From: a virus
Lineage: Duplodnaviria > Heunggongvirae > Uroviricota > Caudoviricetes
Length of the DNA stretch: 33,990 bases
IMG/VR virus record: IMGVR_UViG_2737471857_000019
Direction: 5' to 3' (one strand)
Position numbers and translations under genes: made by a program. The notes below the pieces were generated by a model. That model searched no databases and was not told where the DNA came from. It saw only the letters and a list, made by a program, of their open reading frames with translations. Every line of letters begins with the position of its first letter. Position 1 is the first letter of the stretch. Below are positions 3,858-12,919 of the stretch, in pieces.

Positions 3858-4109
3858 ATGAGTGTAAAACTATCTGTCGAATTTACAGAAATTGGGGGCG
3901 GTAAATGCCGGATTATGATGAAGATTGACAGGTCTGACTTTCAGACAGACGAAGAGATGGCCCGCGCGGTTAGTATGGCCGGAGCCATGATGGCTGTACT
4001 GAAAGAGCATCATGAGAACGAGGTAATTGATTTACAGGTTAACGGAGGGCGTCCCGTGCAATTAACGCCGGATGCTGTGTCAGGAACAGCAGGAAATCAG
4101 ATGCATTAA
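3858..4109 (+). CDS. hypothetical small acidic protein (83 aa)
   Basis: ATG 3858 with AGAGAGG SD; N-terminus MSVKLSVEF resembles the next ORF (MAVKLEVIIY). Confidence 0.5.
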   Translation: MSVKLSVEFTEIGGGKCRIMMKIDRSDFQTDEEMARAVSMAGAMMAVLKEHHENEVIDLQVNGGRPVQLTPDAVSGTAGNQMH

Positions 4110-4119
4110 GGAGTAAAAC

Positions 4120-4335
4120 ATGGCGGTTAAGTTAGAAGTAATTATCTATACCGATGAAAAAGGCTGTGTTTTAACCCAGACCACGGGGAGTTATTCGGAG
4201 GACGGAGCTTCCGAAAAGGAGTTTCAGGTGGCAACAAGATTACATGATGTTATCAAGGAAACGCTTAGAAATGACTATAACGGCGTGAATCTTTTTTCTG
4301 AAAACGTTGCGCCTCGCGCACATAACACACATTAA
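4120..4335 (+). CDS. hypothetical small acidic protein (71 aa), possible paralogue of 3858-4109
   Basis: ATG with AAGGAG SD; N-terminal similarity to the preceding ORF. Confidence 0.5.
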   Translation: MAVKLEVIIYTDEKGCVLTQTTGSYSEDGASEKEFQVATRLHDVIKETLRNDYNGVNLFSENVAPRAHNTH

Positions 4336-4424
4336 TCTGTAAATATCACTGAGGTAATTTAATTATGACGGCTGAAAATAAAGTTAAGCAATACACGAAA
4401 ACTTAAGCGCCTGAAGGTTATTGG

Positions 4425-5009
4425 GTGGATGCCCGTGGCGTAATGACACCTGAAAGCCTTATCAAAGATATTGACCGCGACCGCGAGCAGCTGGTCGGTG
4501 AGCTTGTGGAGATGGTGATTGCTGCCTCCGCCTCACTGCGGGAACTGAAACTGCGTGCGTTTGGTGATATCCAGGCATTTATTGACCTGTCGGCGGAGAA
4601 ATACGGCGCTGTGAAAGGCGGCAAAAAAGGCAATATCACGCTTTACAGCTTTGACGGGCGATACAAGATTCAGCGCGCCATGCAGGACCGTATCGCGTTT
4701 GATGAACGCATTCAGACCGCGAAGTCGCTGATTGATGATTGCCTGGCTGACTGGACGGAAGGTGCGCGCCCTGAAATTAAAGCCATCATTAGCGAGGCAT
4801 TCAGCACGGACAAGGAAGGCAACATTAACACAGGGCGCGTTCTGGCCCTGCGTCGCCTCGAAATTGAGGACGAACGCTGGAATAACGCCATGATGCTGAT
4901 TGGTGAAGCCGTCCAGGTGATTGGCAGCAAGAGCTATATTCGTGTGTATGAGCGCGTTGGTGATTCTGATGAATACCGCGCAATCCCGCTTGATATTGCA
5001 GGGGTTTAA
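4425..5009 (+). CDS. hypothetical early protein, possibly DUF3164-like (194 aa)
   Basis: GTG start with GAAGG SD; size and position fit a family I recall from Mu-like prophages; assignment from memory only. Confidence 0.35.
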   Translation: MDARGVMTPESLIKDIDRDREQLVGELVEMVIAASASLRELKLRAFGDIQAFIDLSAEKYGAVKGGKKGNITLYSFDGRYKIQRAMQDRIAFDERIQTAKSLIDDCLADWTEGARPEIKAIISEAFSTDKEGNINTGRVLALRRLEIEDERWNNAMMLIGEAVQVIGSKSYIRVYERVGDSDEYRAIPLDIAGV

Positions 5010-5496: not shown

Positions 5497-6042
5497 ATGA
5501 AAGATAAAGTCTGGGATTTTATTGTTACTCCTGAAGGTTTTGCTACCCGTTCATCTGAGAAGTTAACCAATGTAACGTTATGGACGTCATCATTGCTGGG
5601 CCATCTGGGAGCACCTGCCGATTTTATGCATGTGGTACTTGATGCACAGATTGCCGGGAATGCTATGGCCAGTAAGGGGGCTTATATTCAGGGAGATTTG
5701 TTCGCCATGATGGCGAATGACACAGCAGCGCTGTATATCGCCACACGGAACATACTGACAAGAATATCCATGCTGTCTGACTGTAAGGATATGGAAGACC
5801 TCGCATACATCCTTGAAGATGATTTGCTCACTATCTCAGGTGTGCAGGAATCCCTCCCGCGTCAGTTGCGGTTTATTGACCTGATGGAGTCATATAAAGA
5901 TAAGCCTGATTTTTTTCAGATTCGATTCAGTGGAATGGAATTGCTGGATGAATATTATTCGCTGGATTCGATTTCCCGTGATGTGAAGGCGTTTGTTAAG
6001 TCTGTTGATCGCCATTACCGGAAAGCTGAACGCTGTAGTTAA
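5497..6042 (+). CDS. hypothetical protein, visibly AT-richer than its neighbours (182 aa from ATG 5497)
   Basis: ORF with AAGGGGA SD; preceded and followed by copies of the same leader repeat; no family recognised. Confidence 0.55.
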   Translation: MKDKVWDFIVTPEGFATRSSEKLTNVTLWTSSLLGHLGAPADFMHVVLDAQIAGNAMASKGAYIQGDLFAMMANDTAALYIATRNILTRISMLSDCKDMEDLAYILEDDLLTISGVQESLPRQLRFIDLMESYKDKPDFFQIRFSGMELLDEYYSLDSISRDVKAFVKSVDRHYRKAERCS

Positions 6043-6048
6043 TAAATC

Positions 6049-6111
6049 TGTTTTTAATTTTATTTGTATATGACGTAAACCAGTCAGGGCTGGCTTACGT
6101 CTGAATAAGAG
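6049..6111 (+). repeat. leader repeat copy 2 upstream of the 6121 ORF
   Basis: Aligns with 5424-5486; hairpin arms GACGTAA (6072-6078) and TTACGTC (6095-6101), with one compensatory base-pair change relative to copy 1. Confidence 0.7.
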
Positions 6112-6120
6112 AAATTCATT

Positions 6121-6837
6121 ATGGAAAATAAAAGTAAATACATTGCCAGAATTAAAAAACTGTTACGCCTTGCCAGAGGAACATCAAGCCCGGAAGAAGC
6201 CGCTAACGCTATTGCAAAAGCCCAGGCTTATATGCGCCAGCATGGTATCAGCGAAAACGACGCGGAATTGTTCGATATTCAGGAGGCTGCCAGCGCGGGT
6301 GCCCCCAGTAATGCTGTGATTTCGCCGCGCTATATGCATGTTCTGTGTAGTCTGGTCCGCAATGCCTTCGGGGTTGAATGTTATATCTCCTTTAAATATC
6401 TGGAATCTGGTTCACGTAAATGCTACGTGAAATTTTATGGACCTGGCAGCCGCCCGGAAATCGCTGCCTACGCGTTTGATGTGCTTTCCCGTCAGATGAT
6501 GGCAGAGCGCAGGAAATATCAGGATAAACACTGCAAGCGTTGCAAACCATCCACGCGGGTGGCCCGTGGCGACCAGTTCTGCGAAGGCTGGGTCTTTGGT
6601 GCCCGTGATGTCATTGCGGTGTATGACGTCTCCCCGGAAGAAAAAAGCCGCCTTGAGCTTTACAGAAAGAACCTGCACAGCACTAAAGGACTGTGTGACG
6701 GGGATATGCGCACGGCTAAAGCATGCCGGGGTGCAGAGTTTGCCGCTACAGCCGGTTTTATCGCCGGGAAAAATGCCAGGTTGCATCAGGGGGTTAATGG
6801 TCAGAGCAACAGACTGCTGGCACTGGGGAGGGGGTAA
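6121..6837 (+). CDS. DUF2786-like protein with C-terminal Cys cluster (238 aa)
   Basis: N-terminus IARIKKLLRLA...SPEEAANAIAKAQAYMRQHGI resembles the DUF2786 helical domain as recalled; HCKRCKP...FCEGW cysteines. Confidence 0.45.
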   Translation: MENKSKYIARIKKLLRLARGTSSPEEAANAIAKAQAYMRQHGISENDAELFDIQEAASAGAPSNAVISPRYMHVLCSLVRNAFGVECYISFKYLESGSRKCYVKFYGPGSRPEIAAYAFDVLSRQMMAERRKYQDKHCKRCKPSTRVARGDQFCEGWVFGARDVIAVYDVSPEEKSRLELYRKNLHSTKGLCDGDMRTAKACRGAEFAATAGFIAGKNARLHQGVNGQSNRLLALGRG

Positions 6838-7879: not shown

Positions 7880-8083
7880 TCAGATGAAAAACCGTAAGGC
7901 AAAAATTCTGTTAGCTCGCAGAAACGGTGTTGGGGTCTGGCGATGGTTGAGGATTAGTAACAGACGAGTGAGGTTGACGGGGTGTCGTGGTGTGATGGGG
8001 CACAGTTGTTGCAAAAAGCCCAGCGCGGCGCAAAACCGCTGGAAGAATCACACTAACGCAAAGTAATTAAATAATAACCAATA

Positions 8084-8111
8084 GCAGACCAAAATATATG
8101 TTTTGGTCTGC
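8084..8111 (+). promoter_or_regulatory. perfect 11 bp-stem hairpin / inverted repeat GCAGACCAAAA..TTTTGGTCTGC
   Basis: Read directly; overlaps a direct repeat ATGTTTTGGTC (8098-8108 and 8120-8130) just upstream of the 8134 ORF. Confidence 0.5.
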
Positions 8112-8133
8112 CAAAAGCGATGTTTTGGTCATT

Positions 8134-8412
8134 ATGAAGATTGAACAAATCGGAATGGCAGCCTTCCGGCAGCAGGCTGAAAGCGGTGGCGTGGATGAGT
8201 TCGTCGTGCAGCGGTTCGGTGGTGTGTATCACCTCTTCGCTGTGAATCGCCGCGCTGGTGTGTCTTATTTTCTACAGGAACGCCGTGGCGATTACAAGAC
8301 GTGGCTGTCTCTTGACCGTGCCGCCGCGTTCCTGTCAGGGATTGGCGTTTCACGTTTTACCGTGCGTTTTGAGGATAACAAACATGCTGAAAAAGATGAT
8401 CGGAGCCATTAA
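8134..8412 (+). CDS. hypothetical early protein (92 aa)
   Basis: ATG 8134 downstream of the hairpin; track start 8098 lies inside the hairpin. Confidence 0.35.
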   Translation: MKIEQIGMAAFRQQAESGGVDEFVVQRFGGVYHLFAVNRRAGVSYFLQERRGDYKTWLSLDRAAAFLSGIGVSRFTVRFEDNKHAEKDDRSH

Positions 8413-8779
8413 AGCCGGTCAGGCGTATCTGGGGTGGGATGATGTCCTTTATCGCCAGACGCTGGCCCGCCTGACCGGTAAAACCAGCACCACACGCTGC
8501 AACCTCGATGAACTGCGCATCATCCGGGAATACATGCACGAACAGGGATTTCCGCGCAAGGCCCCCGCCGGTAAAGGTCGCCGCCCTCGTGTTGCAATGA
8601 GCAGAAAATCGGTATTATCCAAAATTGAAGCGTTGCTGGCTGATACCGGTCATTCCTGGGCGTATGCAGAAGGACTGGCATCTCACATGTATAAGCAACA
8701 TGTGATCGAATGGCTGACGGATGAACAGCTTTTTGGGGTGATGGTGGCGCTGGTTAAAGATTCAAGGAGACGTAAATGA
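8384..8779 (+). CDS. GemA-like protein (Mu gp16 / DUF1018 family)
   Basis: MIGAIKAGQAYLGWDDVLYRQTLARLTGKTS...LDELRIIREYMHEQGF matches the GemA/DUF1018 pattern as recalled; ATG 8384 behind GAGG. Confidence 0.55.
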   Translation: MLKKMIGAIKAGQAYLGWDDVLYRQTLARLTGKTSTTRCNLDELRIIREYMHEQGFPRKAPAGKGRRPRVAMSRKSVLSKIEALLADTGHSWAYAEGLASHMYKQHVIEWLTDEQLFGVMVALVKDSRRRK

Positions 8780-9114
8780 AAAAACTGTTATTACTTATTC
8801 TGGCTTTATGTTTTACAGGGATATCCCATGCTTCTGATTCAGAGGAAGATTTGATCAAAAAAACATTACAGGGCGATTATCAGGCACAACGTAATCTGGC
8901 TTATTCATACATGAATGGCTGGGATGATATTTCAAAGGATATCATCAGAGGATGCGCTCTCAGGAAGGTTATTCTCTTGACACAAGCCAAAGCTGACATT
9001 GGCGATTATGGAAATGAAGCCATAGATTGCCGAAAAGTTCATCCAACAGATAACAAGAAAGTATGGGAATATGTCAGAGGATACCTGATGTTGATAAACG
9101 AGAATAAAAAATAA
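8776..9114 (+). CDS. AT-rich secreted small protein with Sel1/TPR-like segment (112 aa); moron candidate
   Basis: Signal peptide MKKLLLLILALCFTGISHA; markedly AT-rich codons compared with flanking genes; last gene before the terminator. Confidence 0.6.
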   Translation: MKKLLLLILALCFTGISHASDSEEDLIKKTLQGDYQAQRNLAYSYMNGWDDISKDIIRGCALRKVILLTQAKADIGDYGNEAIDCRKVHPTDNKKVWEYVRGYLMLINENKK

Positions 9115-9121
9115 TATGAAC

Positions 9122-9150
9122 AAAAACCTTCGCAACTGCGGAGGTTTTTT
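9122..9150 (+). terminator. rho-independent terminator ending the early operon
   Basis: Stem CCTTCGC/GCGGAGG (one G-U pair), loop AACT, followed by TTTTTT; A-run on the 5' side. Confidence 0.7.
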
Positions 9151-9156
9151 ATGGCC

Positions 9157-9184
9157 TGTACAAGCGATCATGTATGGCTATAAT
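9157..9184 (+). promoter_or_regulatory. sigma70-like promoter candidate for the Mor/C-family gene
   Basis: TGTACA, 16 bp spacer, then perfect TATAAT (9179-9184), about 30 bp upstream of ATG 9214. Confidence 0.4.
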
Positions 9185-9213: not shown

Positions 9214-9681
9214 ATGCAGACCTTCAGTGAAACAGATCTTCGCGATGCGCAGTCACTACTGCCCGATTCCGTGCAGCAACTGATTAGCGTGATTGGCTTC
9301 CCCGCCCTGACCCGGTTAATTCGTTCTTTTGGTGGTGTGACGTTAAGTGGTAAAACCGGCGCACACGCCGAACGCACCGGCGGTGTCCATGCCCTGTTAC
9401 ATGACGTGCTGACCGAAGACGAAATCAACAGATTGATCCGCTTTCTTGGCGGTGCACCGTTTTACATTCCTCGTTGCGATCATGCGTTACGTGCCCTGCG
9501 TAACACCCGTTTTATGGCTGATTTACAGCAGCATGTAAAAGACGGATGCTCACACCGGCAGGCGCTGGCACTACTCTGTCCCCGTTACGGGATTTCAGAC
9601 CGGTACGCATGGCAACTGATACACCGACGACAAAAACAGACTTCGCTGAAAAGCCCCACCCAGGTGGGGCTTTTTGATTAA
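9214..9681 (+). CDS. Mor/C-family transcriptional activator (middle/late regulator)
   Basis: C-terminal HTH-like SHRQALALLCPRYGISDRYAWQLI and a FYIPR segment as in Mu Mor/C; in the middle position after the early terminator. Confidence 0.55.
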   Translation: MQTFSETDLRDAQSLLPDSVQQLISVIGFPALTRLIRSFGGVTLSGKTGAHAERTGGVHALLHDVLTEDEINRLIRFLGGAPFYIPRCDHALRALRNTRFMADLQQHVKDGCSHRQALALLCPRYGISDRYAWQLIHRRQKQTSLKSPTQVGLFD

Positions 9682-12178: not shown

Positions 12179-12919
12179 ATGCAAAAACAGATTATTGGTA
12201 ACGCAACGTTGTATTGCGGTGATGTTCTTGATGTGCTGCCAGCGTTATCCGAACGTTTTGATGCCGTCATTACCGACCCGCCTTACAGCAGTGGTGGCAC
12301 ACATAAATCAGACCGCAGCATAGCCCCTTCGGACAAGTATGTCGGTCACACCCGGTATGCCGAGTTCACCGGCGATAACCGCGACCAGCGCAGCTGGGCG
12401 TTCTGGTGTTCCATGTGGATTTCTCATGCATTGCACAGGCTGAATCCCGGCGGTTATTTCATGGTGTTCAGTGACTGGCGACAACTACCGGCGCTTACCG
12501 ATGCATTTCAGGCCGGTGGTGTGCTGTGGCGTGGTCTGGTTGTCTGGGATAAAACGCAGGCTTCCCGTGCGCCACACACCGGCTATTTCCGGCATCAGGC
12601 CGAGTATGTGGTCTGGGGCAGCAACGGAAAACTCGACAAATGCCCGCACGGTGGCCCGTTCCCTGGTGTGATTACGCAGCGTGTTGTCCCGTCTGAAAAA
12701 CTGCACATGACCGCAAAGCCAGTTCAGCTGATGGCCGAGCTGGTTAAACCGCTGGCACCGGATGCGCACGTCCTCGATCCGTTTATGGGAAGCGGCACCA
12801 CCGCCATCCCTGTACTTGCCCGTGGCGGACGGTTTACCGGCATTGAAATGACTAACCAGTATTTTGATATCGCCTGCGCACGTATCGAAAAAGCGCAGGC
12901 AGAAGCAGCGCAGGTGTGA
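12179..12919 (+). CDS. orphan DNA methyltransferase, beta-class (N6-adenine or N4-cytosine), 246 aa
   Basis: Motif IV DPPY near the N-terminus and motif I FMGSGTT near the C-terminus; no adjacent restriction endonuclease. Confidence 0.8.
   Translation: MQKQIIGNATLYCGDVLDVLPALSERFDAVITDPPYSSGGTHKSDRSIAPSDKYVGHTRYAEFTGDNRDQRSWAFWCSMWISHALHRLNPGGYFMVFSDWRQLPALTDAFQAGGVLWRGLVVWDKTQASRAPHTGYFRHQAEYVVWGSNGKLDKCPHGGPFPGVITQRVVPSEKLHMTAKPVQLMAELVKPLAPDAHVLDPFMGSGTTAIPVLARGGRFTGIEMTNQYFDIACARIEKAQAEAAQV

Follow-up and report, generated by a model that had tools for sequence, protein, structure and literature searches.

What is a small, strongly AT-rich gene for an apparently exported protein doing between gemA and mor of a Mu-like phage? 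The question is raised by a 33,990-bp stretch of viral DNA (IMG/VR record IMGVR_UViG_2737471857_000019, called the window below), which holds most of a Mu-like (transposable) prophage, with transposase genes, DUF3164, DUF2786, GemA, Mor, holins, an M15 endolysin, DUF1804, a terminase and a Mu-type portal among others. The gene, referred to here as the SLR (Sel1-like repeat) gene, had been read in the original prediction as a foreign moron, acting in lysogenic conversion or superinfection exclusion, at the end of the early operon. We find that the gene, together with the intrinsic terminator behind it, makes up an accessory cassette that can be exchanged and is joined to the 3' end of gemA in this E. 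coli Mu-like prophage. The gene belongs to a large, unannotated family, members of which are recurrently carried by transposable phages at the junction between early or immunity genes and lysis or late genes. Its product may have a protective role in the envelope, and we put the probability of that at roughly 40%.

The exchange is seen directly in the gemA-to-mor stretch, which was found at 95-99% identity in 58 of 5,426 complete E. coli genomes. Slot states were called by span length and by reading one representative per state. The SLR gene fills the slot in 13 of the 58, a 158/159-aa protein in 22 and a 174-aa protein in 5, and the slot is empty in 18; the SLR gene is absent, that is, from 45 close relatives, 27 of which have unrelated genes instead. 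These related prophages vary only within about 8753-9155 of the window, prophages with flanks 96-97% identical being found with the SLR gene, with an unrelated signal-peptide protein or with an empty slot. The terminator sequence exists in two versions, each travelling with its cargo. The first downstream holin has the identical accession (WP_001372993.1) in all four slot states (loci L001, L002, L004, L005 and L006); the second (WP_000445984.1) was shown to be identical in L001 and L002 only. Carriers of the SLR gene include Shiga toxin-producing (STEC), avian and human E. coli. The 158/159-aa gene (L002 3480-3959, L006 978-1454) counts enteropathogenic E. coli E2348/69 among its carriers, and the 174-aa gene (L005 1029-1553) belongs to phrog_19473. 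Both alternative proteins start with signal-peptide-like sequences and their genes have a GC content of 0.40-0.43, every slot cargo gene being low in GC (0.37-0.43). They have no Pfam or PADLOC match, and their only PHROG match is phrog_19473, to which no function is assigned. That they might be distant members of the SLR family was considered and rejected, the family profile at full sensitivity showing them to be unrelated. This pattern suggests that the SLR gene is dispensable for phage growth and interchangeable with the other secreted cargo of sister prophages.

The composition of the gene, judged strikingly AT-rich by eye in the original prediction, proved to be so when windowed GC and codon adaptation were computed. 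Its GC content (0.369) and its GC at third codon positions (GC3, 0.354) are both the lowest among the 52 open reading frames (ORFs) of at least 60 aa in the window, compared with a GC of 0.525 for gemA, 0.532 for mor and 0.542 for the whole window, and a GC3 of 0.53-0.56 in the neighbours. The GC minimum for 339-bp windows across all 33,990 bp (0.366) starts at 8779; the z-score of the ORF is -3.24, and the equally low windows are 14 overlapping ones, all at 8773-8789. Codon adaptation to the phage's own genes, calculated leaving one gene out, is lower (0.546) than in any other of the 38 genes compared, for which the median is 0.708. Since GC3 is low too, the bias cannot be put down to amino-acid content. 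The family gene lies 7-16 GC points under its own phage in four other lineages too (Salmonella, Aquitalea, Bordetella and Comamonas); in Mariprofundus its GC equals that of the phage. Neither outcome that would have spoken against the original prediction was obtained: the gene is far outside its neighbours' GC range, and, as described below, its product is no core Mu protein. Of the view that it is foreign, the atypical composition stands, but the picture of an isolated insert does not: a large family occupies the same junction, and the gene has co-diverged with its neighbours in the lineage of an 88%-identical relative (L009), against which dS is 0.36 for the SLR gene and 0.44-0.59 for the flanks.

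In the same comparison dN/dS is 0.17-0.23 for the SLR gene and 0.06-0.09 for gemA and mor; the SLR gene is a genuine protein-coding gene under purifying selection. The whole protein (residues 1-112) matches positions 1-114 of the 114-position profile of phrog_5882 (PHROGs v4) with an E-value of 1.6e-55, and the Bordetella, Comamonas and Aquitalea relatives match it too; that family is without functional annotation in PHROGs v4. A word-indexed search recovered nine close clusters only (E. coli, Citrobacter, Rodentibacter and metagenome-assembled phage genomes), and an exhaustive profile search 410 representative clusters at E <= 1e-3, 120 of them at E <= 1e-10. A second search gave 202 clusters at E <= 1e-5 from Enterobacterales, Pasteurellaceae, Bordetella, Comamonas, Aquitalea, Noviherbaspirillum, Mariprofundus and metagenomes, all of them 'hypothetical' and none with a Pfam domain. 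Across 42 diverse members six columns are invariant (Y35, R39, A42, C60, D77 and C85) and nine more nearly so. In non-Mu contexts there are also members that are chromosomal, or that have an N-terminal domain fused to them. Scans of the SLR protein and 42 relatives against Pfam, NCBIfam and PADLOC found no family beyond a sub-threshold Sel1; weak matches to MerG in these scans were treated as noise. Among 50,697 phage records the nucleotide search matched the gemA part only, and the sole phage matched by tblastn was Mannheimia phage 3927AP2 (two accessions). Databases already list the sequence itself, as a hypothetical protein, under E. coli, Salmonella and E. albertii, and a literature search found no study of the phrog_5882 family. 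What is new here is the observation that transposable phages carry this family repeatedly, as an accessory gene of conserved position, and that secreted cargo is exchanged in its E. coli slot.

Positional conservation was followed in 40 loci with close members, fetched by pattern-based scans (37 from IMG/VR and 3 from GTDB). The order GemA-SLR-Mor is found in 33, which are all the loci in which the three genes were detected; the other seven are truncated by the contig end or have mor more than 800 nt downstream. The GemA of the Pasteurellaceae phages is related to that of the window only at E 1e-7 to 1e-17, and in these relatives one intrinsic terminator lies ahead of the SLR gene and another behind it, yet no promoter match was found there. 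Gene orders for distant members were taken from exact-protein look-ups. Compared with SLR-mor-103 aa-holins-M15 endolysin in the window, they are GemA-96 aa-SLR-Mor-holin-lysozyme in Salmonella, GemA-Mor-SLR-GH19 in both Hafnia and Mariprofundus, and GemA-Mor-SLR-VanY in Aquitalea. Two BcepMu-like Bordetella prophages (L049 and L055) have the order helix-turn-helix (HTH) regulator-membrane protein-SLR-holin-SLT, and a Comamonas prophage (L052 4436-5495) has HTH (weakly CI-repressor-like)-SLR-lysozyme-Rz; in these BcepMu-like prophages the HTH gene is repressor-like and points away from the transposase operon. The family is thus found in Mu-like prophages of gamma-, beta- and zetaproteobacteria, beside gemA and mor or beside a repressor, and just 5' of the lysis genes. 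In Comamonas the two genes overlap, the SLR ATG sharing bases with the stop of the HTH gene (ATGA), this HTH gene is divergent from the transposase operon across a switch-like region with an inverted repeat, and the SLR protein has an N-terminal membrane anchor in place of a cleavable signal. Such arrangements suggest that in BcepMu-like prophages the SLR gene is co-expressed with an immunity gene. No family member was found by the family profile at full sensitivity in the stretches read of Mu (7.5-12.5 kb) and BcepMu (1-14 kb). Because it is absent from these stretches and from 45 of the 58 close E. coli relatives, the SLR gene is not a core Mu-like gene.

The product has what looks like a clear Sec signal peptide, as originally proposed. 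Its N-terminus reads MKK, LLLLILALCFTGI and SHA|SD. It has the three-part build (n-, h- and c-region) of a signal-peptidase-I substrate, with small residues at -3 and -1, and over its most hydrophobic 11 residues the Kyte-Doolittle mean is 3.06. The call rests on these rules and on inspection, on the low confidence given to residues 6-18 in the AlphaFold2 (AF2) model, and on the N-terminal hydrophobic segments of the family, present in 206 of the 229 members with the core motif, 61 of which have a lipobox-like site. Inspection of the N-terminus of the window's protein found no lipobox and no twin-arginine motif. Reading it as a lipoprotein was rejected, as the residue at -1 in LALC is L, hence no lipobox. 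Export to the periplasm therefore seems probable, and no signal for export past the periplasm was found.

As for the fold, the AF2 model has a mean pLDDT (predicted local distance difference test) of 85.6, with residues 6-18 below 50 and the remainder at 88 or above, and shows five helices after the signal peptide. The mature part of about 93 aa is predicted to form a capping helix followed by two Sel1-like helix pairs. In a structural search this predicted alpha/alpha helical repeat superimposes on solved SLR proteins, the closest of which include LpnE, a Legionella effector, and c5321, a protective antigen of uropathogenic E. coli; Foldseek against viral predicted structures (BFVD) gave nothing significant (best E 0.77). 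The 42-member family profile matches the SEL-1 repeat protein 8sxq at E 7.5e-4, in four repeat-wise alignments, and 6ok3 at E 0.12. The Pfam Sel1 model (PF08238) matches one stretch (aa 36-59) below threshold (E 0.022, 15.8 bits against a cut-off of 30.7), and across the relatives this hidden Markov model reaches E <= 0.01 in 2 of 42 only. The earlier label 'Sel1/TPR-like' (TPR, tetratricopeptide repeat) is therefore right at the level of fold, for a divergent mini-version with about two repeats that fails the formal Pfam test. The domain has at least two cysteines in all 229 core-motif members and exactly two in 203. By the predicted helices, C60 is 9 residues and C85 10 residues away from the loop linking two consecutive antiparallel helices, a register in which they could form a disulfide.

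The coordinates of these features are collected in Table 1. The interval of the original prediction (8776-9150) has the start of the ORF right; the ORF ends at 9114, and the rest includes the terminator.

Table 1. Features of the gemA-mor region, in positions of the window
Feature	Coordinates	Strand	Basis
gemA (gp16-like), upstream neighbour; TGA stop at 8777-8779	8384-8779	+	Pfam PF06252 GemA, E 7.5e-18
SLR cargo gene, 112 aa plus stop, phrog_5882	8776-9114	+	full-length PHROG match, dN/dS
Shine-Dalgarno AGGAG, 6 nt 5' of SLR ATG	8765-8769	+	sequence reading
Predicted Sec signal peptide, aa 1-19, MKKLLLLILALCFTGISHA, cleavage after SHA	8776-8832	+	n/h/c regions, -3/-1 rule, hydrophobicity, AF2 pLDDT
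Predicted mature protein, 93 aa, 10.8 kDa, pI 6.5; capping helix and two Sel1-like helix pairs	8833-9111	+	
Cys60 codon, family-invariant; putative disulfide partner Cys85	8953-8955	+	alignments, 229-member scan
Cys85 codon, family-invariant	9028-9030	+	alignments, 229-member scan
Intrinsic terminator, 12-bp stem, 4-nt loop, T-run; closes the gemA-cargo transcription unit	9122-9150	+	RNA folding
Sigma-70-like promoter match TGTACA-16-TATAAT, 5' of mor	9157-9184	+	kept in every slot variant
mor-family activator, downstream gene	9214-9681	+	Pfam PF08765, E 1e-6; phrog_836, E 2.6e-42
Exchangeable cassette: last gemA codons, ribosome-binding site, cargo gene, terminator	~8753-9155	+	alignment of slot variants, junction sequences, 58-genome span census

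How the gene is expressed can be read in part from this layout. Its upstream neighbour is GemA-like, as had been said, and the SLR ATG overlaps the gemA TGA in an ATGA arrangement. The promoter scan found no promoter-like site on the + strand between 8300 and 8776, and none belonging to the SLR gene itself could be detected in the window; the gene would be co-transcribed and translationally coupled with gemA. Its description as the last gene before a terminator agrees with the folding of the RNA: the first strong terminator after gemA has a hairpin that begins 7 bases after the SLR stop codon, with a folding energy of -15.8 kcal/mol (z -4.64, none of 200 shuffles equally good). This terminator and a second one, at 9648-9675 (-20.6 kcal/mol), which closes mor, were both set by RNA folding and were missed by a consensus terminator scan. 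Rfam gave sub-threshold terminator-type matches to leader families only over the terminator region, and no RNA gene is proposed. Expression in the lysogen is hinted at by analogy, from the coupling to a repressor-like gene in Comamonas and from the GenBank record of Mu, in which a semi-early promoter is annotated directly upstream of gemA. By its title, a 1992 paper describes constitutive expression of the gem operon as lysogenic conversion.

Two tandem palindromic 18-mers, CCAAAA-N6-TTTTGG, lie at 8089-8106 and 8111-8128 (region 8084-8130), in the gap heading the 92aa-gemA-SLR unit, where a weak promoter-like site (8047-8075) adjoins them. The first is part of a longer inverted repeat of 14+14 nt. 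These are the only two matches in the window, where 0.2 would be expected by chance, and the pair is kept at the same place in 9 of 9 E. coli-type relatives. The two palindromes might serve as operators of a semi-early promoter comparable to the one annotated ahead of gemA in Mu. An antisense ORF of 79 aa (8932-9171, - strand) also covers the terminator and the 3' half of the SLR gene, and a promoter-like match of 9/12 lies on the same strand at 9033-9005; this ORF has probably arisen simply from the AT-richness of the sequence.

SLR and TPR modules serve as scaffolds for protein-protein interaction, and the role that we favour for the SLR protein is protective, as a periplasmic protein-binding module acting in superinfection exclusion or envelope protection. 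The estimate of about 40% given above applies to this role. It is favoured because sister prophages swap the gene for other secreted proteins or drop it, because BcepMu-like phages place it with a repressor-like gene, and because there are precedents in T4 Spackle and in Sel1-repeat immunity proteins. Spackle is an early periplasmic protein of T4 that stoichiometrically inhibits the gp5 lysozyme domain of the incoming phage by forming a complex with it (PMC7677548), and a Sel1-repeat protein serves as a toxin-neutralising immunity protein of a type VI secretion system (T6SS), with direct binding predicted (PMC7108748). In the proposed mechanism the SLR protein would be made together with GemA, cross the inner membrane by Sec and be oxidised to a compact two-repeat module, locked by a Cys60-Cys85 disulfide. 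The module would then bind another envelope protein and stoichiometrically sequester or block it; candidate targets are, on the side of an incoming phage, a peptidoglycan hydrolase or entry component and, on the side of the host, an enzyme of the envelope. The outcome would be an infected or lysogenic cell that is protected.

Several points weigh against a protective role. Its functional half is drawn by analogy, so that 'lysogenic conversion or superinfection exclusion', as the original prediction had it, keeps the standing of a hypothesis. PADLOC-DB contains no defence model that matches the SLR protein or either alternative cargo protein at E <= 0.1, and since the family also has chromosomal, non-phage members, an anti-phage function is not intrinsic to it. 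Were the early operon fully shut off in lysogens, a gene with no promoter of its own would act only in lytic growth. Finally, the constant adjacency to the lysis cassette could instead mean a role in lysis.

On that last account the product would be an early periplasmic regulator of lysis timing, binding the periplasmic domain of a holin, endolysin or spanin, or peptidoglycan, and so keeping lysis from coming too early or setting its moment. The antiholin RI of T4 controls lysis in a comparable mode. The SLR gene does lie zero to two genes 5' of the lysis cassette in three different genome layouts, and its product appears to be periplasmic and probably made early. The adjacent endolysins, however, come from unrelated families (M15/VanY, GH19, GH24-type lysozyme, SLT and GH108), so a specific endolysin partner is unlikely, and a terminator stands between the SLR and lysis genes in the window, Salmonella, Aquitalea and Mariprofundus. 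In sister prophages that share the first holin the slot is vacant or taken by unrelated proteins, and therefore the lysis cassette works without the SLR gene; Mu, too, is without it in the region read. We consider control of lysis unlikely. An improbable reading, too, is a lysogenic conversion that has nothing to do with phages, the protein being either an orphan immunity-type binder of competitors' periplasm-acting toxins (T6SS effectors, bacteriocins) or a host-interaction or virulence protein, such as are known among the Sel1-repeat proteins of pathogens. LpnE and c5321 among the closest folds, the T6SS immunity precedent (PMC7108748), the carriers noted above (STEC, avian and human E. coli) and the coupling to a repressor-like gene in the Comamonas and Bordetella prophages would fit it. 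Against these stand the lack of a toxin gene adjoining the SLR gene in any locus, of an export signal beyond the periplasm and of more than about two repeats, and the presence of members in prophages of free-living Mariprofundus, Aquitalea and Comamonas, which argues against a role specific to animal hosts.

It is very unlikely that the gene is no moron at all but an ordinary, vertically inherited component of the lineage, made AT-rich by its amino-acid content. Synteny kept across very distant Mu-like phages, a dS close to that of the flanks and the Mariprofundus gene with the GC of its phage all agree with such descent, but the lowest GC3 in the window, the deficit of 7-16 GC points in four other lineages, the absence from the Mu and BcepMu stretches read, and above all the 45 of 58 near-identical E. 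coli prophages that lack the gene, with an unrelated replacement in 27, do not. That the ORF is a spurious one in an AT-rich spacer deserves practically no credence: it is short, AT-rich and annotated as hypothetical only, but the idea is already refuted by conservation, with hundreds of homologues sharing the 6 invariant and 9 nearly invariant columns, next to a dN/dS of about 0.2, a good ribosome-binding site and a confidently predicted fold.

Should the protective role be true, the slot between gemA and the terminator would be a natural exchange site for secreted proteins; should it not, the SLR gene is one more prophage accessory gene. A more ambitious version, which we regard as rather doubtful, is that these proteins are a widespread and hitherto unrecognised class of exported, disulfide-locked mini-Sel1 proteins, a signature accessory that Mu-like phages of hosts ranging from Zetaproteobacteria to Enterobacteria retain at the junction of early and late genes or within the repressor operon, and a new periplasmic exclusion or envelope-protection factor, with the slot a dedicated, fast-exchanging locus for secreted cargo like the defence hotspots of prophages. 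In practical terms, the 13/22/5/18 split among the 58 E. coli genomes offers ready isogenic comparisons for exported phage cargo. The family, with more than 400 clusters and no Pfam or NCBIfam model, could yield a small and tractable periplasmic protein-binding scaffold, and characterising it would annotate a gene of STEC, Salmonella, Pasteurellaceae and Bordetella prophages.

Some features of the surrounding DNA may be recorded here. The downstream gene at 9214-9681 is the only Mor-family gene seen in the window. This gene of a late activator stands alone between two strong intrinsic terminators, with a near-consensus and seemingly strong sigma-70-like promoter (9157-9184), in contrast to Mu, where mor is fused to gemA and the terminator lies 3' of mor. 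Two more AT-rich patches in the early region, at about 4068-4430 and 5789-6250 (339-bp windows with GC <= 0.40), may be other acquired early genes. A second accessory gene of polymorphic presence seems to lie farther on, where an ORF of 246 aa (12179-12919) separates the DUF1804 gene from terL: its counterpart in the STEC313 prophage (L001 13881-14621) is annotated as a DNA-methyltransferase, and it is missing from the OkiPb01701 prophage (L002), where terL directly follows DUF1804.

Among known systems, T4 Spackle is small, Sec-exported and helical, as the SLR protein is predicted to be, and the logic proposed to be shared is that of an exported early binder. The likeness does not extend to homology that can be detected: the SLR protein has no PDB match to Spackle at E <= 10, and Spackle is absent from its top 60 structural matches. 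The T6SS immunity proteins Sel1E of K. pneumoniae and PA5087 of P. aeruginosa are SLR proteins as well, but are about 250-350 aa long and encoded beside effector genes, whereas the SLR gene is phage-encoded and has no toxin neighbour.

Closer in structure are the solved SLR proteins LpnE (6deh), EsiB/c5321 (4bwr), AlgK (3e4b), the periplasmic domain of SflA (6if6) and HcpC (1ouv), with whose repeats the GDxxAQxxLAxxY helix motif of the phage protein aligns and whose extracytoplasmic location it would share. These have 4-20 repeats, compared with about two helix pairs and a cap in the 93-aa mature phage protein, which is also phage-borne and falls under the gathering threshold of Pfam Sel1. In the Helicobacter Hcp proteins, as the structures of HcpB and HcpC show, cysteines cross-link helices. 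Found only in the family of the SLR protein are a conserved D-Y/x-G-N-E motif and a single Cys pair, which would join helix B of repeat 1 to helix A of repeat 2.

The last comparison is with the phage morons, extra genes such as bor and lom of lambda or those of the HK97 type, as defined by Hendrix and colleagues. The name fits the SLR gene in its patchy presence among close relatives, its atypical composition, its own terminator, its place at an operon boundary and its apparently envelope-targeted product. It does not fit in that the gene is without its own promoter in the window and is coupled to gemA. And the same family sits at the same site in phages of three proteobacterial classes, a constancy that is unusual for a sporadic moron.

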